The notes beneath the pieces were generated by a model, which saw only the letters and a program-made list of their open reading frames with translations, was not told the origin of the DNA and did not search any database. 64,000 bases of DNA from Candidatus Bathyarchaeota archaeon (GTDB taxonomy: Archaea; Thermoproteota; Bathyarchaeia; Bathyarchaeales; Bathycorpusculaceae), in NCBI GenBank assembly GCA_963720565.1, contig CAVRFW010000009.1, positions 1 through 64,000 of the forward strand. Reading direction: 5' to 3'. Positions 9,975 through 28,235 of this stretch are shown here, one piece after another; positions within the stretch are counted from its first letter, which is position 1, and each line of letters begins with the position of its first letter. The position numbers and the translations under genes are program-made.

Positions 9975-12470
9975 ATGACTAAAAGTAAGACAGCTATAGC
10001 GATTGCTATCTTAGTGTTTGCAATGGCTTTTTCACTTTTCGCTCTACCAACTAACGCACAACCAGGAGTTACACTGAAAACCTATCCCTTCGTCGATGCC
10101 ATCCCCAACCCGGTAGGCGTTGGCGAAGACCTGTTGATTCGCTTCGGTATTCTACAGCAGACGCCAAACGTAGCGTTCGGATATTCGGGGCTGACGGTAA
10201 CCATCACTCGACCAGACGGAACAACTGAAACGCGCGGACCATTCACGACAGACTCAACAGGAGGAACCTACACGTTATACCCAGCCACACAAGTTGGCAC
10301 ATACAAGATTAAGGCCAATTTCCCAGAACAGACTTGGACCTTCGGAGCCTTCTTCAACCTTGAAGGGGGTAACATGATTTTCGATGGAACGACGATGGCA
10401 GCCAGCACCAGCGAGACTATTGATGTTGTTGTTCAGGCAGATCCCCTACCGGCTTATCCAGGCAATCCTCTGCCCTCGGAATATTGGACTCGTCCGATAG
10501 ATCCGCAGCTTAGAGAATGGGCATCAATCGCAGGCAACTGGGTCCAACGACCTGATAATTCGTTGGCGCTTTACAACGACGATGCACCAGAGACTGCTCA
10601 CGCACTGTGGAGCACACCATTAACCACCGGAGGCTTAATCGGAGGCCTATGGGGAGAAGGATTAACTCCATCGTCAGCTGAAACAGGAGACGCGTACGAA
10701 GGCAAATTCCCCAGCGCAGTAGTAATCAGCGGAATCGTCTATTATACAAGAACAGATACCAGAGCAGAAAGAGCACCGGCTATCATCGGAATAGACTTGC
10801 ACACTGGAGAACAAGTTTTCTTCAAGAACAACACTTCACTATCATTTGGTCAAGTCTTGTACTTCAACAGTTGGAACTATGACGGCACATACACTTACCT
10901 CTGGGACAACAATTGGAACGCATACGACCCCTTCACGGGCAATTTCCAGTATGGTTTCAACTACGTACCTTCAGGCGTTAGGGCTTACGGACCAAGCGGC
11001 GAAATACTCATCTACCAAATCGACTATGCTAATAATTGGATGGCTCTTTGGAACTCAACTGCTGCTGGACACGCTCACTTAGGAGCAATGGGTCCTGACT
11101 ATGGCAGTTGGGGCAACTCAGTGCACGGATCCAAATGGGACGCAAACGTCTCAAGAGCCTACTCTTGGAACGTATCAATCCCCGCAGGACTACAAGCTGG
11201 AACATCATTCTTTGCACCAGTACTCAAGATTTATCCTGACAGAGTAATGACTGCATGGTGGAACTATACGCATGTAAGGACATGGGCATTGAGTACAGCA
11301 GCAAACAATAGAGGACAATTGCTGTTCGACAAATGGTGGAATGCACCTGCCGAATGGAATGACGGAAAGAACACAATACAATACGCCAGCGCGACTAACC
11401 AGGTTGAACACGGCGTCTTCACATTATGGAACAAAGAACTCAGAAAGCACTATGGTTTCAGCGTGGAAACTGGAAACTTCATGTGGGAAACAGACAGCGA
11501 ACACTTCTTGGACGCTTACGGCTGGGGCAATGCTGAGCACACATGGTACTTTGCTTACGGCAAATACTTCTCAACAGGCGTTGGCGGCATAGTATATGCC
11601 TATGACGATCAGACAGGAGACGTAGCATGGATGTACAAACTAGATGATGCGTACAATGAACCAGTGACTGGTGATCGTTGGTGGGGCTGGATAGACCTCA
11701 TTACCGACGGAAAAGTCTACGTAGGCCATATTGAGCACTCTGCAGAACAACCTATGCCACGCGGCGCACCATACGTGTGCCTCGACGCTGAAACAGGCGA
11801 TGAAGTGTGGAGAGTAAACGGAATGTACCGTCAGACTCGATGGGGTGGCTGCGGAGTAATCGGCGACAGCATAATAGCGACAATGGACACATACGACCAG
11901 CAAGTATGGGCTATAGGAAAAGGCCCAAGCGCAACAACAGTCATGGCTTCACCGAAGGTTTCAAACACGGGCAGCATACTCATTGAAGGCTACGTAACGG
12001 ACACATCCCCTGGAACAGAGGAATATGCTAGAACCGCTCGTTTTCCAAACGGAGTTCCAGCAGTTTCTGACGAAAGCCAGAGCGAATGGATGCTATACGT
12101 ATACAAACAGTTCGGTCGTCCAATGAACGCGACAGGTGTAGACGTACAGATAGACGTTCTGGACGCAAATGGCAACTTCCGAAACATTGGAACAGCCAAG
12201 AGCGATGCCAACGGATTCTACAGCTTCAAATGGTCCCCTGACATCGAAGGCAAATTCACCGTATACGCCAGTTTCGTTGGCTCCAAAGCCTACTATCCAT
12301 CAAGCGCACAGACAGCCTTCATCGTTGACCCCGCACCTGCAGCTACTCCAGAACCTACACAAGCACCAGCATCACTAGCAGACCAGTATCTGCTACCCGC
12401 AACAGGCGGCATAATCGCAGCTATAGCAGTCGTCGGTGTAGTGCTCGCACTACTACTCAGGAAAAAATAA
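9975..12470 (+). CDS. Surface-anchored PQQ-like beta-propeller repeat protein, paralog 2
   Basis: 831 aa; signal peptide, LPSEYWTRPI, DLHTGEQ and DAETGDEVW repeats, C-terminal Ig-like region, TM+LRKK. Confidence 0.9.
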   Translation: MTKSKTAIAIAILVFAMAFSLFALPTNAQPGVTLKTYPFVDAIPNPVGVGEDLLIRFGILQQTPNVAFGYSGLTVTITRPDGTTETRGPFTTDSTGGTYTLYPATQVGTYKIKANFPEQTWTFGAFFNLEGGNMIFDGTTMAASTSETIDVVVQADPLPAYPGNPLPSEYWTRPIDPQLREWASIAGNWVQRPDNSLALYNDDAPETAHALWSTPLTTGGLIGGLWGEGLTPSSAETGDAYEGKFPSAVVISGIVYYTRTDTRAERAPAIIGIDLHTGEQVFFKNNTSLSFGQVLYFNSWNYDGTYTYLWDNNWNAYDPFTGNFQYGFNYVPSGVRAYGPSGEILIYQIDYANNWMALWNSTAAGHAHLGAMGPDYGSWGNSVHGSKWDANVSRAYSWNVSIPAGLQAGTSFFAPVLKIYPDRVMTAWWNYTHVRTWALSTAANNRGQLLFDKWWNAPAEWNDGKNTIQYASATNQVEHGVFTLWNKELRKHYGFSVETGNFMWETDSEHFLDAYGWGNAEHTWYFAYGKYFSTGVGGIVYAYDDQTGDVAWMYKLDDAYNEPVTGDRWWGWIDLITDGKVYVGHIEHSAEQPMPRGAPYVCLDAETGDEVWRVNGMYRQTRWGGCGVIGDSIIATMDTYDQQVWAIGKGPSATTVMASPKVSNTGSILIEGYVTDTSPGTEEYARTARFPNGVPAVSDESQSEWMLYVYKQFGRPMNATGVDVQIDVLDANGNFRNIGTAKSDANGFYSFKWSPDIEGKFTVYASFVGSKAYYPSSAQTAFIVDPAPAATPEPTQAPASLADQYLLPATGGIIAAIAVVGVVLALLLRKK

Positions 12471-12493
12471 ACTTCCAAAACCCAAAACAATTT

Positions 12494-12508
12494 CCCCCCT
12501 TTTCTTTT
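12494..12508 (+). terminator. C-run/oligo-T archaeal terminator
   Basis: CCCCCCTTTTCTTTT after stop 12470. Confidence 0.55.
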
Positions 12509-12637
12509 GTTCAAAAAAAGTCTTCTAAACAAACAAAAACAAGGCAAAAGAATTCAGTTTTTCAGAAGAGAAAGCCTGTAGGACAGATTGTATCTATATT
12601 ATTTTTTTCCATTCTTTCTAGTCCCTCGGAGCAAATG

Positions 12638-12706
12638 ATAAATACGCAGTGCTCTGAAAGGAATCATAGCCTTGAAAAAGGCATAAACTGAAAGGAGAAA
12701 AAAACA
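12638..12706 (+). promoter_or_regulatory. TATA box, GCCTT-GAAA-AAGGC hairpin and RBS of paralog 3
   Basis: ATAAATA 12638-12644; inverted repeat 12669-12682; GAAAGGAGAA before ATG 12707. Confidence 0.75.
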
Positions 12707-15349
12707 ATGCAAAAAAGCAAGATTGCTATAGCAACTACTGTTTTTCTGATGCTAACCATTACACTCGGTGCTATGCCCTCAGCTTTTGCTCACACTCCAG
12801 CATGGCAAGTACCAACATATTCTTTCTGCAGTGTCTCGCCCAATCCAATTGGTGTAGGGCAACAGGTGAACGTAAACTTCTGGGTAAACATACCACCACC
12901 TACGGCAAGTGCACAGTATGGCGACAGATGGGGCGGTTTAACAGTGAAGGTTACAAAGCCTGATGGAACCACTCAGACACTGGGACCATTCACATCCGAT
13001 GCGACTGGAGGAACATACACCACATACACGCCCACGACGGTTGGCGAATATACTTTCCAGATGTTCTTTGCAGGACAAACATTGGCAGGCGCCAATCTCC
13101 CTCCGGGAACTCCGCCTGGCGCGATGGTTGGAGACTATTTCAAGCCTAGCAGCAGCAACATATTCAAGCTGACTGTTCAAGATGAGCAACTAACATATCC
13201 CTCGGCTGTGCCGCTTCCGACACAATACTGGACTCGCCCAATTTACGGTGAAAACAATGAATGGTATCAAATCGGCGGTAACTGGCTCGGTCTTGGCCAA
13301 TCAACATTCGCTGCAACTGGAATGTACAGAACCACCGGAAACTTTAATCCATACACAAAAGCACCCGACTCTGCTCACATCTTATGGACTAAACCTGAAG
13401 CCTTCGGCGGAATTATTGGAGGGGAATATGGCAATACTCAAACATCTAACTACTATTCAACTTCGCAGTACGAACCAAAGTTTGCGCCAATAATAATGCA
13501 AGGCATACTCTACTACACTCTTTATCCAGGGTCTTCCACTCATCCAGAAGGATGGGTAGCAGTTGACCTTCATACCGGACAAACAATCTGGACAAAGACT
13601 GACGAAGAAGTCAACGGTGAAGTACTGAGATGTGGTCAAATACTTAACGAGATCACGCCAAACCAGTATGGAGCCCTCGCTTACCTATGGTCAATCCCCG
13701 CAAGCGGCGCTGGGTTCGGAGGATCACCTTCATACATGTCAATGTATGACGCAATGACAGGCGAATGGATACTAAACGTTACGGGCTCTTTGGGGATGAC
13801 GATTGTAACAGACGAATACGGAGGCTTGATCGGCTACTACGTCAACACTACCACGAACTTCATGACAGGCGAAGTCACAGCGTCTCTAACTATGTGGAAC
13901 TCTACCAGATGCATCAATCTCAACGTAGCCAACTACGGCGGCGGCGAACCGGTTCCTGATCAGTGGATGTGGAGACCCCCACACGGCGCGCAACTCGACT
14001 TTTCATTGGGAAACCAGTGGTCTGCGCCATTACCCGCTACGGACACTGCAGGAAATTCATTGACTGTAATGATGAGCTATTTCGGCTTTTCATTCCCTGG
14101 CTATTTGCTGTCGATTTCCGCTGTACAAAGCGATGTTGTGCTGTTGACTGGAACAACTAATGAAGGTGCATTCCTCTACCAGCCAGGCTGGCAGGAAGAA
14201 GCAGGCTTCAGTGCAAAAGATGGCCATCTGCTATGGGGTCCATTAAACCGAACACAAACGCCATTCTCAATTATATACATGGGCAGTGTCTGGTCTGGAA
14301 GCGGGGCTTACGTAGAACTAGATGAATCAGCATTGGCAGTCACAGGTTACAGTCTCAGTACCGGTCAGAAGCTATGGGGACCAACTGCGCTTCCTAACGC
14401 GAGTCCATTTAGCTCACTCGGCGCAAACGCTATCGTGGCTGACGATTTCATCTACATATGGCTCTACGGAGGAGACGTCTATTCCTTCAACATCCTAACT
14501 GGCGCATTGAAGTGGGAATATCACACGCCCACTGCTGGATACGAGTCTCCATACGGTCGCAATTCCATATGGACTTTCACTGTGGGAACGATTGCCGACG
14601 GCAAACTGTTCGTCCCTGAAGGTCACATGTACAGTCCACCACTATTCCACGATGCACAGCAACTAGCTTTGGACCTAGAAACTGGCGAAGAAGTCTGGAG
14701 CATAGACGCTTTTGACGTTACCAGTGGACCAGCCATATCAGACGGCGTAATGGTAACATTAAACGCCTATGACAACCAGATATATGCATACGGCAAAGGA
14801 CCAACCAAAGTAACTGTTTCGGGACCAGATACTGGCTCAACCATGGACATACCCGTAATGATAAAGGGTACAGTAACTGACATCTCAGCAGGCTCACTGC
14901 AACAAGCAGTAGCAGCAAACTTCCCCAACGGTCTTCCATGCGTCTCTGACGAAAGCATGAGCGACTGGATGGAATTCGTTTACATGCAGCAACCATGCCC
15001 AGCCACAATTACCGGTGTTCCAATCACAATCGACGTCATAGACGACAACGGCAACTACAGAAACATAGGCACAACAACATCTGACTCAAGCGGCACATTC
15101 AGATTCACATGGGTTCCTGACATTCCAGGCGACTTCACCATCATCGCTACCTTTGAAGGTTCAGACTCGTTCTACTCATCATACGCAAGAGACGGTTTCA
15201 CAGTGATGCCAGCTCCAGAACCAACAGCTGAACCAACAGCCGCACCCGCATCTATTGCTGACCAATACATGCTGCCGGGAATAGGCATAATTGTCGCTGC
15301 AATAGCAGTAGTCGGCGCAGTACTCGCACTAATGCTTAGAAAACGGTAA
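12707..15349 (+). CDS. Surface-anchored PQQ-like beta-propeller repeat protein, paralog 3
   Basis: 880 aa; same architecture (LPTQYWTRPI, DLHTGQTIW, DLETGEEVW, TM+LRKR). Confidence 0.9.
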   Translation: MQKSKIAIATTVFLMLTITLGAMPSAFAHTPAWQVPTYSFCSVSPNPIGVGQQVNVNFWVNIPPPTASAQYGDRWGGLTVKVTKPDGTTQTLGPFTSDATGGTYTTYTPTTVGEYTFQMFFAGQTLAGANLPPGTPPGAMVGDYFKPSSSNIFKLTVQDEQLTYPSAVPLPTQYWTRPIYGENNEWYQIGGNWLGLGQSTFAATGMYRTTGNFNPYTKAPDSAHILWTKPEAFGGIIGGEYGNTQTSNYYSTSQYEPKFAPIIMQGILYYTLYPGSSTHPEGWVAVDLHTGQTIWTKTDEEVNGEVLRCGQILNEITPNQYGALAYLWSIPASGAGFGGSPSYMSMYDAMTGEWILNVTGSLGMTIVTDEYGGLIGYYVNTTTNFMTGEVTASLTMWNSTRCINLNVANYGGGEPVPDQWMWRPPHGAQLDFSLGNQWSAPLPATDTAGNSLTVMMSYFGFSFPGYLLSISAVQSDVVLLTGTTNEGAFLYQPGWQEEAGFSAKDGHLLWGPLNRTQTPFSIIYMGSVWSGSGAYVELDESALAVTGYSLSTGQKLWGPTALPNASPFSSLGANAIVADDFIYIWLYGGDVYSFNILTGALKWEYHTPTAGYESPYGRNSIWTFTVGTIADGKLFVPEGHMYSPPLFHDAQQLALDLETGEEVWSIDAFDVTSGPAISDGVMVTLNAYDNQIYAYGKGPTKVTVSGPDTGSTMDIPVMIKGTVTDISAGSLQQAVAANFPNGLPCVSDESMSDWMEFVYMQQPCPATITGVPITIDVIDDNGNYRNIGTTTSDSSGTFRFTWVPDIPGDFTIIATFEGSDSFYSSYARDGFTVMPAPEPTAEPTAAPASIADQYMLPGIGIIVAAIAVVGAVLALMLRKR

Positions 15350-15374
15350 GCAAGTCGGAAGGTCAATCCTTCAC

Positions 15375-15385
15375 TCCCCTTTTTT
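15375..15385 (+). terminator. C-run/oligo-T archaeal terminator
   Basis: TCCCCTTTTTT after stop 15349. Confidence 0.55.
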
Positions 15386-15584
15386 AGTGAGTTAGTGATT
15401 TTCGGCAAGAAGCTAAACGGACAGACAAGTTTATTGAAAGGAATCGAGACCCTCACCACGCATAACGAACCAAAAAAACTCGGGGAATCTGCAATGCACT
15501 TGATATATTAGGACAAGAAGAACTCTCGCTCAGGTTCCTGCGGCTCGCTTTTTGTCTTCTTATGACAACTTTATTTAAAAAGCC

Positions 15585-16061
15585 TTATGTCTCCGCTGAA
15601 TTTTCACAAGCGTCAAACTGATTTGTTCTGAGAGGGAACTGTCTGATTCCAGGCACCGCGAAAAACACATCTACTTTTCGTATGTTGGGCAGCGCTTTAA
15701 TTTTGGATACGTTTCTAAAAAGATCGTTAATATCCCTGAATGCCAGAACTGCATACGCTTCGTAGCTTCCAGTCGTTCGAGTGGCGATTATTACGTTTTG
15801 AGTTTTCTTCAGTTGTTCAACAATCTCAGCCGAGTCTGCCTCCAGCTTAATGTTTATCAACATATGTGCCGTGCCATGGTATCCTATCTTTTCGAGATCT
15901 ATGGTGATTGCAGAAAGGCCAATTGTCCCGTTTGCTTTCATTTCGTTGTATCTTCTTATAACCGTCTGCGTTGAAGTGCCCAGTTTCTTGGCGATAGCCA
16001 TGAACGGTTTTCGAGCGTCTTCGGAAAGCTCTTGAATTATCTTTCGGTCTAGGTTATCCAT
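15585..16061 (-). CDS. Lrp/AsnC family transcriptional regulator
   Basis: MDNLDRKIIQELSEDARKPFMAIAKKLG HTH followed by a RAM-like domain. Confidence 0.92.
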   Translation of the reverse strand: MDNLDRKIIQELSEDARKPFMAIAKKLGTSTQTVIRRYNEMKANGTIGLSAITIDLEKIGYHGTAHMLINIKLEADSAEIVEQLKKTQNVIIATRTTGSYEAYAVLAFRDINDLFRNVSKIKALPNIRKVDVFFAVPGIRQFPLRTNQFDACENSAET

Positions 16062-16074
16062 TCTCTTTTGCCTT

Positions 16075-16548
16075 CTATTCTGAAGATGTTTTCAGGATGT
16101 TCTCTGGATAAAAGTCGAGTTTGTCTGTGCATCCAGTCAATTCGATTTTTAGCACACCTTTTACTTTTTTGAGAGCGTTGCTGACGTTGTCTATTTGTTC
16201 AAGAGAGCCAACTCTTATCGCGGCATGGATGTCATATTTGCCGATTACTCTACAGCAATTGAGGACTCCTGGAAGTTTTTTCAATGCTTTAATAATAGCG
16301 TTTTCACAGTCAGCCTCAGCTATTATGTCTACTACCAGGGTACCGTTGCCTCTGGGGTTTTCCAGATTAGCTATTAAGGTTGTTCCTGTGATTACACCTG
16401 CTTTTTTCATTTTTTTGTATCTTTGGGCGATGGCGGTTATTGAGAGGTTACAGTTTTTCGCAATTTCTGCGAAGTTGCAGCGGGCGTCTCTGAGGAGTGC
16501 TTCTAAGATTTTGATGTCAATTTCGTCGATTTTTGGTTGAGGATTCAC
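16075..16548 (-). CDS. Lrp/AsnC family transcriptional regulator
   Basis: IDEIDIKILEALLRDARCNFAEIAK HTH; VIGKYDI RAM motif. Confidence 0.92.
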   Translation of the reverse strand: MNPQPKIDEIDIKILEALLRDARCNFAEIAKNCNLSITAIAQRYKKMKKAGVITGTTLIANLENPRGNGTLVVDIIAEADCENAIIKALKKLPGVLNCCRVIGKYDIHAAIRVGSLEQIDNVSNALKKVKGVLKIELTGCTDKLDFYPENILKTSSE

Positions 16549-18493: not shown

Positions 18494-18817
18494 CTACGGG
18501 CTGCTAGGTATCTTGACATAGATTTTACCGTTTTCGATTTTGCATTCGTAGCATGTCAGCGCCGTTTCCTTTGTGATCTGATGTTGGCCGTCTCGTACAT
18601 CAAAGATTTGACCGTGGCAAGGACACACGACGAAATATTCTTTCAGTTTTCCCATGGCGAGTGAACATCCCATATGCGGGCACCGATTTGAGACGCCATA
18701 GACTCTGCCATCAACTTTAGCCAACAGAACTCTTTTGCCGGCAACGCTAACAAGCTTCATTCTATCTTCTTTTACCTCGCTTTCATCTGTCGCGAACACA
18801 AAATCCTCTTGAACCAA
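18494..18817 (-). CDS. Rieske [2Fe-2S] ferredoxin
   Basis: CPH..CPCH Rieske motifs. Confidence 0.92.
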   Translation of the reverse strand: MVQEDFVFATDESEVKEDRMKLVSVAGKRVLLAKVDGRVYGVSNRCPHMGCSLAMGKLKEYFVVCPCHGQIFDVRDGQHQITKETALTCYECKIENGKIYVKIPSSP

Positions 18818-18963: not shown

Positions 18964-19028
18964 ATTGCATAATGTTGCATAATATTGCATAAAATTTACT
19001 TTATTGCATAAAATTTACTTTATGCAAT
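18964..19028. repeat. TTGCATAA repeat array ending in a 10-6-10 palindrome
   Basis: Four direct TTGCATAA copies (10,10,19,19-bp units) and perfect inverted repeat ATTGCATAAA-ATTTAC-TTTATGCAAT at 19003-19028. Confidence 0.85.
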
Positions 19029-19379
19029 TAAGCTTAAATTATGGGTTATTATTGTGTTTTAAGCGTGAACTAAGCTTGAAAAGCTTGAAAACCGTCGTTT
19101 TGGAGAGTTCAGTTTCAACTTTTGCACCTCAACATCATGAAATAGAGTGTCGGCTAACATGCGTTAATAGCGAATCTAAACTCATATCGACAAAACTGTC
19201 GCTGAGAGGCAACAATCCTGTTGATGCAATAACGTCAAAATTTAACTTGAGTGTTGCGGACACTAAGAAACTATTTCGTCCTAATGCGGCTGATTTGCTA
19301 TTATATGCCGAAAATAATTTGTTCAATCCGACACTATCGGAAAATTATTGTCGTATTACATGTAGGAGGATGGCGAAAA

Positions 19380-19841
19380 TTGAAGGGTAAGGAGTGGACT
19401 GTTGATGAGGAAAGACAGCTCCGAAAGAACTTTGAGGATGGGCGCTCTCTCCGAGAAATCTCAACTATGCTCGAGAAGAGCCCTGAGGCTGTAAGGGCAA
19501 AACTGAAGCGACTGGGAATAGAAGTTGATAAACACCCGTCGACTGTAATTCGGTTATCAACCTCCAACGTTATTTTGCCCGAGGAACTCATTAGCCTCGA
19601 GGACGCGTTGAAGACGCTTGTAGCCACTCTAAAGATGTCTTGCTCATCTGGGTTGACAAAACTGGAGATTCATCGTCTGCAGGTTGTGGCGATGTTGGTA
19701 AGGACTTACTGCGAAAAATTACCCGTGTACTTGAACTTGAGGGGTTTGGAGCAGCGGTTATTTGAGTTGGAGAGTAAATATAGTGATTTGGCTAAGAAAA
19801 CGCTATCGAAAAAGGTTGAGAGCGACCCGTCTTCCGCGTGA
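19380..19841 (+). CDS. HTH/helical protein, putative terminase small-subunit-like partner
   Basis: N-terminal HTH-like WTVDEERQL..RSLREISTMLEKSPEAVRAKLKRLG and C-terminal coiled coil; AGGAGG at 19364; directly upstream of terL. Confidence 0.6.
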   Translation: MKGKEWTVDEERQLRKNFEDGRSLREISTMLEKSPEAVRAKLKRLGIEVDKHPSTVIRLSTSNVILPEELISLEDALKTLVATLKMSCSSGLTKLEIHRLQVVAMLVRTYCEKLPVYLNLRGLEQRLFELESKYSDLAKKTLSKKVESDPSSA

Positions 19842-19882
19842 ATTTGTCCAGAAAAGAGATTCGTTAGAAGAGTCTTTGGTCG

Positions 19883-21244
19883 TTGTTGAGGCTGAAAAAC
19901 AGCATAAAATCGAACGTCGCGAAAAGAAAGCCGGAAGAATTTTTCGAGCAGATCTTGGGTTTTAAACCTACTGCCTATCAACGCAACCTGATTAAGCTCT
20001 TCGAGGAGAGACAGTTTTTGGCTGCGCGCTGGTGCCGTCAAAGCGGCAAGAGCTGGACAATTAGCGCTTTGCTGTTGAACTACGCCCTAAACCACGATGA
20101 TAGTTACATCGCGGTTGTGGGTCCAAGCTGGCGTCAGACAAAACTGAATGTTCGCCGAATAAGCTTCTTCCTAAGAAAATTGGATGACCCAAGGGTGAAG
20201 GCTCAGAAGACCCGGATTAACTTTCCAAATGGCAGTGTGATCGAGGCTTTTCCGAACAATCCCGATACTATCCGAGGACCAACACTTAACGTTGTTTGGT
20301 GGGATGAGACGAATTTTACTCCCAACGATGAGGACCTGTACGATTCAATCTTGTTTACATTGGGCACGACAAACGGAAAGCTTGTTTGCACGAGTACACC
20401 ATGGAATACAGATTCACTTTTCTGGAAGATGTGCAATCACAGGAACTACGAGGATTTTGCAAGGGATCACGTTACGTGTGAGCAGGCAAAGGAGCCTAAC
20501 GGTCCCTTGAAGGAGGCAATTTTGGACAAGATCAGGCGTCAGTTTGGAGAGGATCCAGCACGGTGGCGAAGGGAAATGGAGGCTGAATGGGCTGAAGACG
20601 AGGACGTTTGGCTGCCGCAATCGCTGATTGCCAGTTGTATTGGAACGGTGAAGAATTGCGGTGAAGACCTTCAACCATGGAACCCGGATGTTGGCTACTC
20701 GGGAGACTTTTTCGCTGGTTTGGATCTAGCTCAGGTGAGAGATTACTGTGTTCTCTCGATTTTTGACAGGGTTAACGACGTGTTGTTTTTGAGGCACTTG
20801 AAGATTTTTCAGCAGCCAACCAAGTACGCTAACGTGCTCGGTTACGTTAAGGCGTTGCAGGATAGGTGGGGCGGGTTCCAGAAGATCCGCGTGGACTTCA
20901 CCAAAGAAGGGCCTTCAATCATAAGCGACATGGAAAACGCTGGCATAAACAATGTTGAAGGTGTTAACTTTAGCGTGCCCAGGAAGAGCGAGATGGCTGG
21001 TTTGCTTAAACAGAGGATGATGAGTCAGCAACTCTTTTTTCCACATTTGACCTGGGAGAAACCATACCGGAGCGACTTGTGCAGCGAGCTAAACGTAGAG
21101 CGTTTCGAGTTGCGGAAGGATGGCGCGATTGGCTTGTCTCATCCAAACGGGACGCATGATGACGTGTTCTGGGCTTGCTCCTTGGGCGTTTACGCGACCG
21201 TAGACATGAAACCCTTTGACATTGAAGCCCTCAAGTTTGGCTGA
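19883..21244 (+). CDS. terL: Terminase large subunit (packaging ATPase plus RNase H-like nuclease); true start may be TTG 19816 with a frameshift near 19925
   Basis: Q-motif PTAYQ, Walker A RQSGKS, Walker B VVWWDE, coupling motif STP, nuclease acids GLDLA, VDFT, HDD. Confidence 0.9.
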   Translation: MLRLKNSIKSNVAKRKPEEFFEQILGFKPTAYQRNLIKLFEERQFLAARWCRQSGKSWTISALLLNYALNHDDSYIAVVGPSWRQTKLNVRRISFFLRKLDDPRVKAQKTRINFPNGSVIEAFPNNPDTIRGPTLNVVWWDETNFTPNDEDLYDSILFTLGTTNGKLVCTSTPWNTDSLFWKMCNHRNYEDFARDHVTCEQAKEPNGPLKEAILDKIRRQFGEDPARWRREMEAEWAEDEDVWLPQSLIASCIGTVKNCGEDLQPWNPDVGYSGDFFAGLDLAQVRDYCVLSIFDRVNDVLFLRHLKIFQQPTKYANVLGYVKALQDRWGGFQKIRVDFTKEGPSIISDMENAGINNVEGVNFSVPRKSEMAGLLKQRMMSQQLFFPHLTWEKPYRSDLCSELNVERFELRKDGAIGLSHPNGTHDDVFWACSLGVYATVDMKPFDIEALKFG

Positions 21245-21325: not shown

Positions 21326-21901
21326 TTGAAGTTGAAAATTGCTGAAAATGAAGTAAAACGTCTGCGGCTTTGCGTTGAGTTTAAGTCGGTTAGCGTCCGG
21401 TTTGAGTTTTTGGGGTACGAGGTGGATTTGGAATCAGGAGAAATATCTGATACGTTGAGGGCCAACTGCCAGCTTGCGAGGGGAGAGTTTGATGTGTTGC
21501 AGACACTGCTTACTCATTACTGCAAAGCTGACCCAGTCGAAAGAACAGGAAGACTTGTAAAGTTCGCGAGTTTGCCAGGAGGGCAAGCATACGAAAAAGC
21601 TTTCTTGAAAAGAGCAGTCGAACCAATAGCTGACACATTCGGCGAAAAACCCGAAAAATTATCAGAATGCGCAAAAACACTCGGAGGATTCTCCAAGACG
21701 TACGGCGATGCCTCAGCTGAGATATCTGCACTGCCCAGCATACCCTTAACCATCATTTTATGGGAAACGAACGAGTTTCCCGCTCAGGCAAGCATACTCT
21801 TCGACGAATCAGCCAGTCATTACCTGCCAACGGAAGACCTAGCCGTGCTGGGCGAACTTACAACATCCAGGCTGTTGAAAATTCAGTCTGTGGTCCGTTG
21901 A
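21326..21901 (+). CDS. DUF3786-like protein
   Basis: KFASLPGGQAYEKAF, YGDAS, ALPSIPL..ILWE..EFPAQASILFD..LPTEDL. Confidence 0.75.
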   Translation: MKLKIAENEVKRLRLCVEFKSVSVRFEFLGYEVDLESGEISDTLRANCQLARGEFDVLQTLLTHYCKADPVERTGRLVKFASLPGGQAYEKAFLKRAVEPIADTFGEKPEKLSECAKTLGGFSKTYGDASAEISALPSIPLTIILWETNEFPAQASILFDESASHYLPTEDLAVLGELTTSRLLKIQSVVR

Positions 21902-22059
21902 TGACCTGAAAAGCGCGTTCTTTTCTCTAAATTACACTTCCTGCATCGTGAGAACAGTCTTTGTGATAGGCCAGTGCAAGAAGGCTTAAAAACTAAACGA
22001 ACAACGGTTTAAAACAGTCACCAGAAACATGTTAGTCCACAAGACAGAAGAACAGAAAC

Positions 22060-22716
22060 ATGAAGCCCACTCGAGTAATATCTTTTGATATGGACGGAAC
22101 TCTCACTGACCTATCCTTTGTAGATTCAGTGTGGTTGGAGGGAATACCCAAACTCTTCGCGCAAAATAACCAGATTTCGCTTGAAGAAGCGCGGAAAAGG
22201 GTGAAAAGCGAGTACGACAGAGTTGGCAATGAGAAACTGGAATGGTATGACCTCAACTACTGGTTAGACAAGTTTAGCATCGACGCTTCACCACAACAGG
22301 TTCTAAAATCTTTTAGAGAGAAAATACGCGTTTTTCAAGACGTACCTACAGTGCTAGAGAACCTGAAAAATCGAGGGTACAGGCTAATTGTAATCACTAA
22401 CGCCCGAAGAGAGTTTGTAGACATAGAAATGCAGCAAACCGGAATACAGGGCTTTTTCGAACGAATCTTCTCTTCGCCTTCGGATTTTCGCCTAACTAAG
22501 AACGCAACGCGCGTCTACGAGAAAGTCTGCATTGCCTGCGAGATTTCACCTTGCGAAATGATTCATGTAGGGGATGACCAAGATTTCGATTTCGAAGTCC
22601 CAAAAAAACTTGGCATAAATGCTTTTCTACTCGACAGAACCGGGACAAAAACGGGCACACATACCATCTCCAGCCTTGAAGAGTTTGAAAGAAAAATCAT
22701 AAAGCGATTCACATAA
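22060..22716 (+). CDS. HAD-superfamily hydrolase
   Basis: FDMDGTL, ITNA, HVGDD motifs. Confidence 0.9.
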   Translation: MKPTRVISFDMDGTLTDLSFVDSVWLEGIPKLFAQNNQISLEEARKRVKSEYDRVGNEKLEWYDLNYWLDKFSIDASPQQVLKSFREKIRVFQDVPTVLENLKNRGYRLIVITNARREFVDIEMQQTGIQGFFERIFSSPSDFRLTKNATRVYEKVCIACEISPCEMIHVGDDQDFDFEVPKKLGINAFLLDRTGTKTGTHTISSLEEFERKIIKRFT

Positions 22717-22844
22717 TCACCTCGGGCAGTCGAGTTTGGCCCCTCTCCTCAGGCTTTCCTTCTTGCGGTCGCACAATTTAAAAAGAGATATACACAGATT
22801 ATTCGAACTATCGCACAGAACAATAATTGCAGGGAGGTGACAGA

Positions 22845-23659
22845 ATGAATTACAGAGAGAGACAGGAAATAATAGCTAAATCGCCTATTTCTTTCGGTTA
22901 CCTTAAGCGATTCAACCTCGGCGCTGGGATTCTACACCTCTCACAGGGAATTCTCATGCTAGCTCTGGGTACCCTCTTGTCATGGGAACGAGACATTTAC
23001 ACGTTCTACTTGAAATTCAGTATTGGACCACCCATCTCCGTTGCTCCAAATCCCCAAATCTTCTACACACTTGGTTACATCGGCGTTATCGTTGCATCTT
23101 TCCCTCTGCTATCCGCTATAGCCCATTTCTTAATTGCTTTCCCCAAGAACAAAGACTACAACTGAAAATTTGAAGAAAGGCATGAATCCATACCGCTGGT
23201 ACGAATATTCCATTTCAAGTTCAATAATGATCGTGCTAATCTCAACTTTCGTAGGCGTCTGGGAACTCTGGTCGACTAGTAATGATTTTCGCCTTGAATG
23301 CAATGATGATCATGTTCGGATACTACATGGAGGTAGTCAACCAAAAAACAGAGAAAACATCATGGTCAGCGTTCATCGTCGGCTGCATATCCGGAGGAAT
23401 TCCCTGGGTTGTCATTTTCGCCTATTTCATAGCCGCCATAACATCCACAGGAACGAATCCGCCTACCTTCGTCTACTTGATTTGCCTAATCTACTTCGCT
23501 GTGTTCAATGTCTTCGCGCTGAACATGGTGCTCCAGTACAAAGGAGTCGGACGCTGGAAAGACTACTTGTACGGCGAACGGGTGTACATAATCCTGAGCT
23601 TCGTAGCTAAAACAGCCTTGGCCTGGCTTGTCTTCGTCGGAATATTCGCACCATTCTAG
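22845..23659 (+). CDS. heR: Heliorhodopsin (frameshifts at ~23163 and ~23275)
   Basis: ILHLSQG (TM1 His), AIAHF (TM2 His), NPYRWYEYS (TM3 Arg and counterion Glu), GERVYIILSFVAK (retinal-binding Lys); GGAGGTGA RBS. Confidence 0.92.
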
Positions 23660-23760: not shown

Positions 23761-24745
23761 CTATTTCCAGTAGTCTTTTCCACCGCCCTCGCCGAACACA
23801 CTCTCCAACTCAGCCAACTGCTCTGGATAAGGCTCAAGCAGAGACTGAGCAGACAAATAGTTTTGTTTGAATCTGATAATCCAGGCTCTCAGAATGCTCA
23901 AATTCGCGCTTAGTGGAAGTCGCCCGCTCTTGTACTTCTCGACTGAATCAAGGAAGAATGATTTTTCATCCTTTGAGAGCTGATTCGAGAAATAGCCCAT
24001 AATCTTAAGCATAGACGTTAACGTATGAACCAACACTCGGCGTTCGATCCAAAGCAAGATGCAAGTGAGCTTCATAATCTTTCAGCATATCCTCCAAAGA
24101 TTTTTCCTCTTGGTTTGCCACAATCTTGCCCAAAATCCCGAGTTCTTTCTGGCTGTACGCCGTGAACAGATACTTGTTTTCTGATTGAAATCTCACCAAT
24201 TCTCTTATTTTACCCGATTCCTTTACACCTCTGAAGGATGCGAAAGCAAAAAGCTTTGTTAGAAAATGCTCTCTTATTCTGAGATTAATCAAACGGAGTT
24301 CGTCCTCTATAGCTAGGTGGGGAAACTTTTTAAGAACTGCCCCTCCGAAAAACCCAGGACCCTTGCCAACTGGCGCTGACTTCTCCGTTTTAGCATATAT
24401 CTTGACGTTCTTGAATCCGCTCGACGGAGAACCCCTCTTGAGTATGAAACCGTCGACTTTTTCTAAAGAATTCAGAAAAGACTCAGCGAACTGTTCCATT
24501 TTTTCCGTGAAGTCATAACCTGTTGCCGGCTGGATTAGTCTACGTTCCCCATTTACAAGCACTATTCTAACAGGGTCACGAGGAACCCCTAATCCAATTT
24601 CAACTTCAGGGCACACGGGAATAAAGTTAACATAGGACTTAAGCTTCTCCACAAAATCGCTTGCAACTATTTGGGCATCATAACGTACCGGTGCAAAAGT
24701 TATGCACTTTGAAATTACAACATTGGGTTTAGCAAAATCTCTCAT
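23761..24745 (-). CDS. DUF523 (TudS)-DUF1722 (YbgA) fusion, frameshift at ~24013
   Basis: ISKCI..VRYD, PVCPEVEIGLGVPR, SPSSG, REHFLTKLF, then KIMGYFS..YLSAQSLLEPYP. Confidence 0.85.
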
Positions 24746-26866: not shown

Positions 26867-28235
26867 ATGGAAATTCTGATTCCTGAACAGCGCGTTAGAA
26901 ATCTCAACAAAAACAAGACCAGAAACAGGCGATACGTTCTATACTGGATGCAATCTTCACAGAGAATAGAATACAACCTTGCCTTGGAATACGCCATTTC
27001 AGAAGCTAACAAATTAAACAAACCCCTTGTCGCTTTCTTCGGACTTACAACTGCATTTCCAGAAGCGAATTTACGACACTATCATTTCATGCTGGAAGGT
27101 CTTCGGGAAACAAGTACACTCCTACAAGAAATCGGAGTAAAACTGGCGGTAGCAGCCAAGTCACCTGAAGAAGGCGTGATTGAACTTGCAGAGGCTTCCT
27201 GTTTAACAGTAGTGGACAAAGGTTACCTTAAACCGCTAAAGCAATGGTACAAACTTGTGGCTGAAAACATAGATTGCCCTTTAATCCAGGTTGAAGACAA
27301 TGTTGTTATTCCACTGCACGAAGCTTCCGGAAAAGAAGAGTATTCTGCCGCGACACTTAGACCAAAGATAGCCAATAAAAGATCGCTATTCCTATCAAAA
27401 CCAACGAAGACTAACCCTGCCAGAGACTCGTTGAGCCTAAAACTTGAATCTCTAGATCTAAAAGATATCGCCAAAATCACTTCGAACCTAGAAATCGACC
27501 ACTCGGTGGACAAAACCGCGCATTTCAAGGGCGGAGCCGGCGAAGCAACAAAACATCTTGAGAATTTCACAGAAAACAAACTGCAAGATTATCCTAAACT
27601 GAGAAACGATCCAACCGTAGACTGTCAGTCAAACCTAAGTCCGTACTTGCATTTCGGACAAATTTCGCCCATCCTAATCGCTTCTGAAATCCTAAGCGCA
27701 AATGCTGCTACTGAAGCAAAAGAGGCATATCTCGAAGAGTTGATACTCCGACGCGAACTAGGCAGCTAACTATGTCGAATACAATAGCGACTATGATGCT
27801 TTCAAAGGGTTGCCTGAATGGGCAAAACACTCTCTCCGCAATCATACGAAAGACCCCCGGAAGTACTTGTACAACTTGGAGGAACTTGAGAACGCACAAA
27901 CTCACGACCCCTATTGGAATGCTGCTCAAAACGAAATGCGCTTAACAGGAAAGATGCATGGTTACATGAGAATGTACTGGGGAAAGAAAATTATTGAATG
28001 GACTGCAACGCCCGAAATAGCCTTCAAAACTGCCCTGCAACTAAACAACAAATATGAGCTGGATGGAAGAGACCCAAACGGGTTTGCAGGAGTATCATGG
28101 TGTTTCGGAAAGCATGACCGTCCTTGGGGAGAGAGACCTATATTTGGTAACGTACGTTATATGAACGATAATGGGTTGCGAAGGAAATTCGATGCTGACA
28201 AGTACGTTGAGAACGTAAAACATCTGCATCATTAA
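26867..28235 (+). CDS. phr: Class II CPD DNA photolyase (frameshift at ~27762)
   Basis: [53 protein letters not shown]. Confidence 0.93.

Follow-up and report, generated by a model that had tools for sequence, protein, structure and literature searches.

The window (the whole 64-kb stretch of DNA analysed here) carries a gene for the large subunit of a terminase (terL), the only terL copy in the genome, and directly upstream of it a gene for a helix-turn-helix (HTH) protein. On the left, the pair has as its neighbour a host gene for a Rieske ferredoxin (18494..18817, reverse strand; PF00355, 62.8 bits), and on the right host genes for a DUF3786 protein and a HAD hydrolase (21326..22716, forward strand). 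The same right flank and the upstream region are found in a sister locus, L113, which is 95% identical to the window at the nucleotide level over 4.2 kb. Among the profiles of the virion module, only HTH and TerL were matched in the 64 kb at E<0.4; no tRNA was found there in a search without introns, and integrase probes run across the genome gave matches on contig C5 only. The layout is not that of a satellite, as host genes adjoin the pair on both sides and the locus has no long flanking direct repeat.

The large terminase is encoded by a 453-aa ORF at 19883-21244 (Terminase_6N, 58 bits against a cut-off of 22; phrog_2, E 1e-33; T4 gp17, E 1e-9) that comprises an ATPase and a nuclease domain; counted from its natural start, the frameshift-bearing gene spans 19816..21244 on the forward strand. 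Residue conservation marks Walker A (R52/G55/K56, 20036..20053) and Walker B (E142, 20297..20308), and it also suggests a catalytic role for the acidic nuclease residues D281, D338 and D426/D427 (20723..21163). R52/G55/K56, E142, S171-T172, D281 and D338 were invariant in all 113 virus-linked and all 60 lone or short-flank TerL copies, D426/D427 being kept in 111 of the former and 58-59 of the latter. The predicted structure of P0001, the intact sister protein from L113, matched T4 gp17 (E 5e-20) and the nuclease domains of G20c and P74-26, which have the RNase H fold. The window TerL thus shares with the T4 gp17 type an N-terminal packaging ATPase with Walker A/B and a coupling motif and a C-terminal nuclease, the fold of the latter being predicted by modelling. 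It differs from a T4-type terminase in that no portal or head was found in the genome and that the HTH protein has no sequence or fold match to known TerS.

The HTH gene (19380..19841, forward strand) encodes, in a structure model with a pLDDT of 76, an N-terminal HTH joined by a disordered linker to a helical hairpin and a long helix, and its family was found at 260 of 270 terL loci. An HTH with a modelled helical region directly 5' of terL resembles TerS, described as an HTH plus a helical partner in the accessible text of PMC6854486. From position and architecture, we infer that this gene is the small terminase gene (terS). No TerS was matched at E<=0.001 in fold searches with the protein model; the HTH resembles the GcrA DNA-binding domain (Z 7.4, rmsd 1.3, 47 aligned residues), the protein matched the regulator family phrog_323 (E 3e-10), and its predicted four-copy complex scored 0.31. 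In the accessible part of the paper on Bathyarchaeia tailed provirus 1 (BATPV1; PMC11705971), the HTH gene is labelled a 'transcriptional regulator', and the table there names no small terminase.

The earlier note on this DNA had thus correctly described the conserved catalytic motifs (Walker A/B, STP, nuclease Asp), the HTH/coiled-coil gene in front of terL, the ordinary cellular neighbours and the lack of portal, capsid, tail and integrase genes in the 64 kb, but it had called TerL full-length. Compared with the 97%-identical sister copy P0001, whose 475-aa frame is open and starts at the position corresponding to 19816, the window carries a single additional base, at 19916, owing to which translation from 19816 yields only 49 aa. 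Missing from the 453-aa ORF are some 35 residues of the native N-terminus, which are predicted to form a helix; all motifs lie downstream of this part. Of 68 conserved gene sites in the assembly, 12 have a split frame (two of the 12 overlap), the chance for a gene of terL size being about 19%. Since the assembly is prone to indels and three nearby extra bases (23160, 23274 and 24014) are absent from public contigs, the insertion at 19916 is probably an assembly error rather than a recent real mutation. Three public contigs cross 19916 and each has gaps, the alignment rows covering other positions than 19916, and no public sequencing run matched half of the window's sequence words. At 22827-23659, 24005-24745 and 26867-28235, there are a membrane-protein gene in three pieces, which we take to be heliorhodopsin-like, a DUF523-like gene and a split photolyase-like gene; given the same three extra bases, these splits are probably assembly errors too.

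Between the Rieske gene and the pair lies a cluster of short repeats (19-nt unit, with a perfect palindrome, 19004-19027, at its end) together with a 61-nt segment (18965..19078), which is likely an operator or promoter. Its single other copy in the 2.09-Mb genome heads the neck genes of a defective provirus on contig C5; L113 has extra tandem copies, and the element is skipped in the deletion allele described below. A reading as a viral late promoter was rejected, as neither copy was matched by a profile of protease-upstream regions. No DNA match was found in 200 genomes of the family, and the repeat pattern matched three of these 200, once each. Viral sequences gave 31, 2 and 1 pattern matches, all single; among the 31, L299 has a repeat cluster, and the three from the sets of 2 and 1 stand without module genes. 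A viral intergenic region (L117:11603-11670) has repeated palindromes of a related kind that are not clearly homologous to the window's element. A 104-codon open frame follows (19076..19390, forward strand; dN/dS 0.78, p 0.39); with five matches only, all in close copies, and no Pfam or PHROG match, it is probably not a functional gene. We also observed large secreted proteins beside two Lrp/AsnC-type genes near both viral remnants (window 9975-16548 and G000:C5:4154-7777).

A palindrome within the HTH gene

The linker codons of the HTH gene contain an inverted repeat (19521..19564, arms 19521-19531 and 19554-19564), a candidate pac or TerS-binding site. Its score of 9 is reached or exceeded in 1.3% of 1500 random windows. 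Across the family, the palindrome scored at least 8 in 87 of 90 viral copies, with a mean of 12.0 against 7.6 for synonymous shuffles in 47 viral copies. It was kept in 20 of 21 recent lone or short-flank copies and in none of the 14 copies of one old lone clade, and in a second lone clade it was measurable in two copies only. The arms vary among lineages yet remain complementary. As their mismatches show no G-U bias (G-T 13, A-C 15), we regard the palindrome as a DNA rather than an RNA element, and the RNA hairpin reading was rejected.

In the halovirus phiH1, pac is located inside terS (PMC6210493, accessible text). Together with the conservation of the palindrome, this precedent leads us to interpret the HTH gene as a putative terS, and the repeat as a candidate site of the pac kind, which the HTH protein would bind. 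Eleven of 36 short contigs begin within 130 nt of the palindrome (p 2e-4, the contigs not being independent), a pile-up that could alternatively reflect assembly breaks. A broken terS-like HTH copy lacking terL (L003, G000:C5:347298-347830) still has the linker palindrome.

Provirus origin and recurrence of lone pairs

Among the best 80 IMG/VR relatives of the window TerL (58-82% identity), 76 have a virion-module setting, and 19 have a capsid or portal gene within 10 kb of terL. The gene order in viral loci is protease, capsid, portal, adaptor, tail, two small genes, HTH, terL and ABC/GNAT. One such locus, L202, lies inside BATPV1 (JAAKEZ010000002:240214-273571), its TerL being 73% identical to that of the window; the accessible text on BATPV1 (PMC11705971) gives the same order, from protease, capsid, portal, adaptor and tail to HTH, TerL and ABC, and contains no mention of lone terminase pairs. 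Of this order, the window retains HTH and TerL only.

No capsid, portal, tail or integrase gene is linked to the window's terL, and profiles for capsid, portal, tube and tape measure matched nowhere in the genome, which is 88.8% complete, the control profile PF06074 also matching nowhere in this search. Other remnants of the virus family occur on other contigs. A tRNA-anchored defective provirus with an integrase lies on contig C5 (G000:C5:7930-29427; L293, L294), with a holin-like gene, a frameshifted adaptor, neck genes, cargo and replication-type genes that an intact provirus also has, and an ABC fragment of the virus family is found on contig C10. Stand-alone small secreted proteins of family c13, which is also found in the virion module, were seen at G000:C8:104665-105195 and C2:113755-114234. 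Overall, we are confident that the pair represents the HTH-terL end of the virion operon of a BATPV1-like tailed provirus, left by deletions on both sides, kept under purifying selection in this lineage and optional as a locus.

Such pairs are found again and again. When the 48 genome loci flanked by 5 kb or more at each end were sorted by rule (with loci from different collections overlapping), 23 proved to be lone pairs, 20 virion modules and five partial modules; homologs are thus not confined to intact proviruses. In a tree of 216 TerL sequences, the lone copies are scattered among the viral ones rather than forming one clade, and a single origin was rejected on 34 of the 216 sequences (deltaL 911, p-AU 4e-43; the size of the difference is rough, coming from a fast search with 2000 replicates). 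By this topology, lone pairs arose repeatedly from the BATPV1-like virus family. Transposon-like mobility was rejected, since near-identical lone copies have common flanking synteny and must have been inherited rather than transposed.

Of 200 family genomes, 107 have a terL relative and 70 a capsid match. By hand count, 14 of 70 family genomes with capsid lack terL, and 17 of 53 with a close terL lack capsid; these similar fractions, uninformative where genomes are fragmented, show no preferential retention of terL over capsid.

Several further observations concern the form of the copies. Broken lone copies were found among the loci. The last 130-370 nt of terL recur as extra or lone fragments, sometimes twice (L228, L229, L247, L262, L270, L342 and the X1 allele), and such tail fragments were present at 4 of 28 lone loci against 1 of 74 viral loci with 3 kb downstream. 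Two TerL relatives (P0097, P0098) have intein-type Pfam matches, and in L271 about 9 kb of other genes split terL. The old lone clade mentioned above (L014, L017-L022, L191, L229, L238, L255, L260, L263 and L270) has a shortened HTH linker and no palindrome, and is the best candidate for a changed function.

Selection on the pair and its loss

Between the window and L113, terL shows 39 synonymous and 8 non-synonymous changes (dN/dS 0.049, p 1e-19), so that it is under strong purifying selection at this one shared site. The HTH gene gave a dN/dS of 0.18 (p 0.003), and the flanking genes 0.15 (DUF3786) and 0.46 (HAD); dS is 0.158 in terL against 0.146 and 0.083 in its neighbours. Since the two loci have both junctions in common, the changes in terL arose after the virus was lost, barring gene conversion of terL by a close virus missing from the sample; the nearest virus-linked TerL found is 84% identical to the window's. 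Median dN/dS was 0.077 in 11 lone pairs (synteny being checked for some pairs only) and 0.033 in 19 viral pairs. The old lone clade gave 0.077 and 0.18, which means that the palindrome is not required for retention everywhere.

In a related population, the stretch 19338..20929 is swapped for 32 other bases (a contig of run X1, depth 8), which removes the HTH gene and most of terL. Protein P0125, the upstream open frame fused to the terL tail, represents the same kind of allele and is possibly not independent of X1. With purifying selection in one lineage and deletion in another, the pair appears selected yet dispensable. Purifying selection on defective prophages in bacteria was reportedly described by Bobay, Touchon and Rocha in 2014; as there, genes of a non-functional provirus are under selection here, but the case is archaeal and the provirus has repeatedly been reduced to a terminase pair. 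In incomplete bacterial prophages, according to the accessible text of PMC7744054, terminases are preferentially lost, a trend that the retention of just the HTH-terL pair goes against.

Possible roles of the pair

An intact ATPase, a nuclease, a DNA-binding partner and a site of its own, with no head, fit best with the use of a related virus's heads. Such evidence induces us to propose a helper-dependent diversion of packaging, a reading that, taken as a whole mechanism, we hold to be a little short of evenly likely. The HTH protein, acting as TerS, would bind the palindrome within its own gene. On infection by a related virus, or on induction of one, the resident TerS-TerL would cut at the palindrome, dock onto the virus's empty heads and fill them with host DNA downstream of the palindrome. 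The heads would be wasted, fewer infectious virions would result, and host genes would be moved, as in lateral transduction. Candidate helpers are common, as the capsid match in 70 of the 200 family genomes indicates. SaPI terminases redirect packaging, and SaPI/PICI and lateral transduction use helper heads from their own pac (PMC6687093, accessible text), as proposed here. Unlike SaPI/PICI, the window locus has no integrase, replication genes or att repeats, the pair includes its own TerL, and lone copies remain at syntenic sites.

The pair might instead act against viruses without packaging, the resident TerL/TerS cutting viral or host DNA or jamming an invader's motor by mixing with its subunits. 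The kept nuclease residues, the patchy and deletable locus and the constraint on the old lone clade despite its palindrome loss agree with this, and blocking of terminase is a known route of defence (TerI, 10.1101/2025.02.27.640495, accessible text). However, PADLOC (library of 2023) matched none of four proteins, the neighbours are not defence genes, and jamming a motor would require no intact ATPase; we consider such a role unlikely.

A plain decaying remnant, whose low dN/dS would date from its time in a virus or stem from gene conversion by close viruses outside the sample, seems quite unlikely to us. The frameshift of terL as assembled, the deletion allele, the other broken viral remnants in the genome, the terL tail fragments at other loci and a dN/dS in lone pairs about twice the viral value would all suit decay. 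Against it, the shared junctions date the changes after virus loss, dS of terL is not raised relative to a neighbour's, the nearest virus-linked TerL is only 84% identical, and terminases are what bacterial incomplete prophages tend to lose (PMC7744054, accessible text). The earlier view that the module is not simply decaying is supported for this lineage by the post-loss selection, and has to be qualified by the proviral derivation, the remnants elsewhere and the deletion in a related population.

Selection might also act on a host task, such as ATPase-nuclease DNA processing, or on the HTH protein, if it represses related viruses. The GcrA-like HTH and the phrog_323 match point that way, but TerL is under tighter constraint than the HTH gene, and repeated origins and loss suit a core task poorly, so that we find this decidedly improbable. 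A dispersed gene transfer agent, which the earlier note had named as an example, is most improbable, even with head and tail genes elsewhere or unassembled: the incomplete genome and the upstream element shared only with the C5 neck genes would allow it, but no capsid, tube, tape measure or portal match was found in the genome, the C5 genes sit within the tRNA-anchored element with its integrase, and, of 14 further genomes that have lone pairs, 6 gave no capsid match. RcGTA likewise has virus-derived packaging genes under selection, but it has a head and tail set, and its TerS lacks the HTH (PMC6854486, accessible text) that the window protein retains along with a candidate site.

The terminase proteins and the virus family were already known, and we found no paper on lone terminases in the open-access literature; this analysis adds the repeated origins of lone pairs, the palindrome in the HTH gene, the frameshift in terL, the deletion allele and the upstream element shared with contig C5. 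Returning to the diversion of packaging, it is tempting, if rather doubtful, to suppose that the provirus most common in Bathyarchaeia has repeatedly given its hosts a minimal domesticated TerS-TerL-pac cassette, a chromosomal trap for the heads of incoming relatives, serving both defence and host-gene transfer, with the older, site-less versions acting in trans. If true, such a trap would provide population-level defence and on-demand transfer of the host genes downstream, and abundant sediment archaea would repeatedly have converted a viral packaging motor into a host tool, opposite to the tendency reported for cryptic prophages of bacteria. The covarying palindrome offers a testable packaging site, together with a candidate small terminase, for a widespread family of archaeal viruses.
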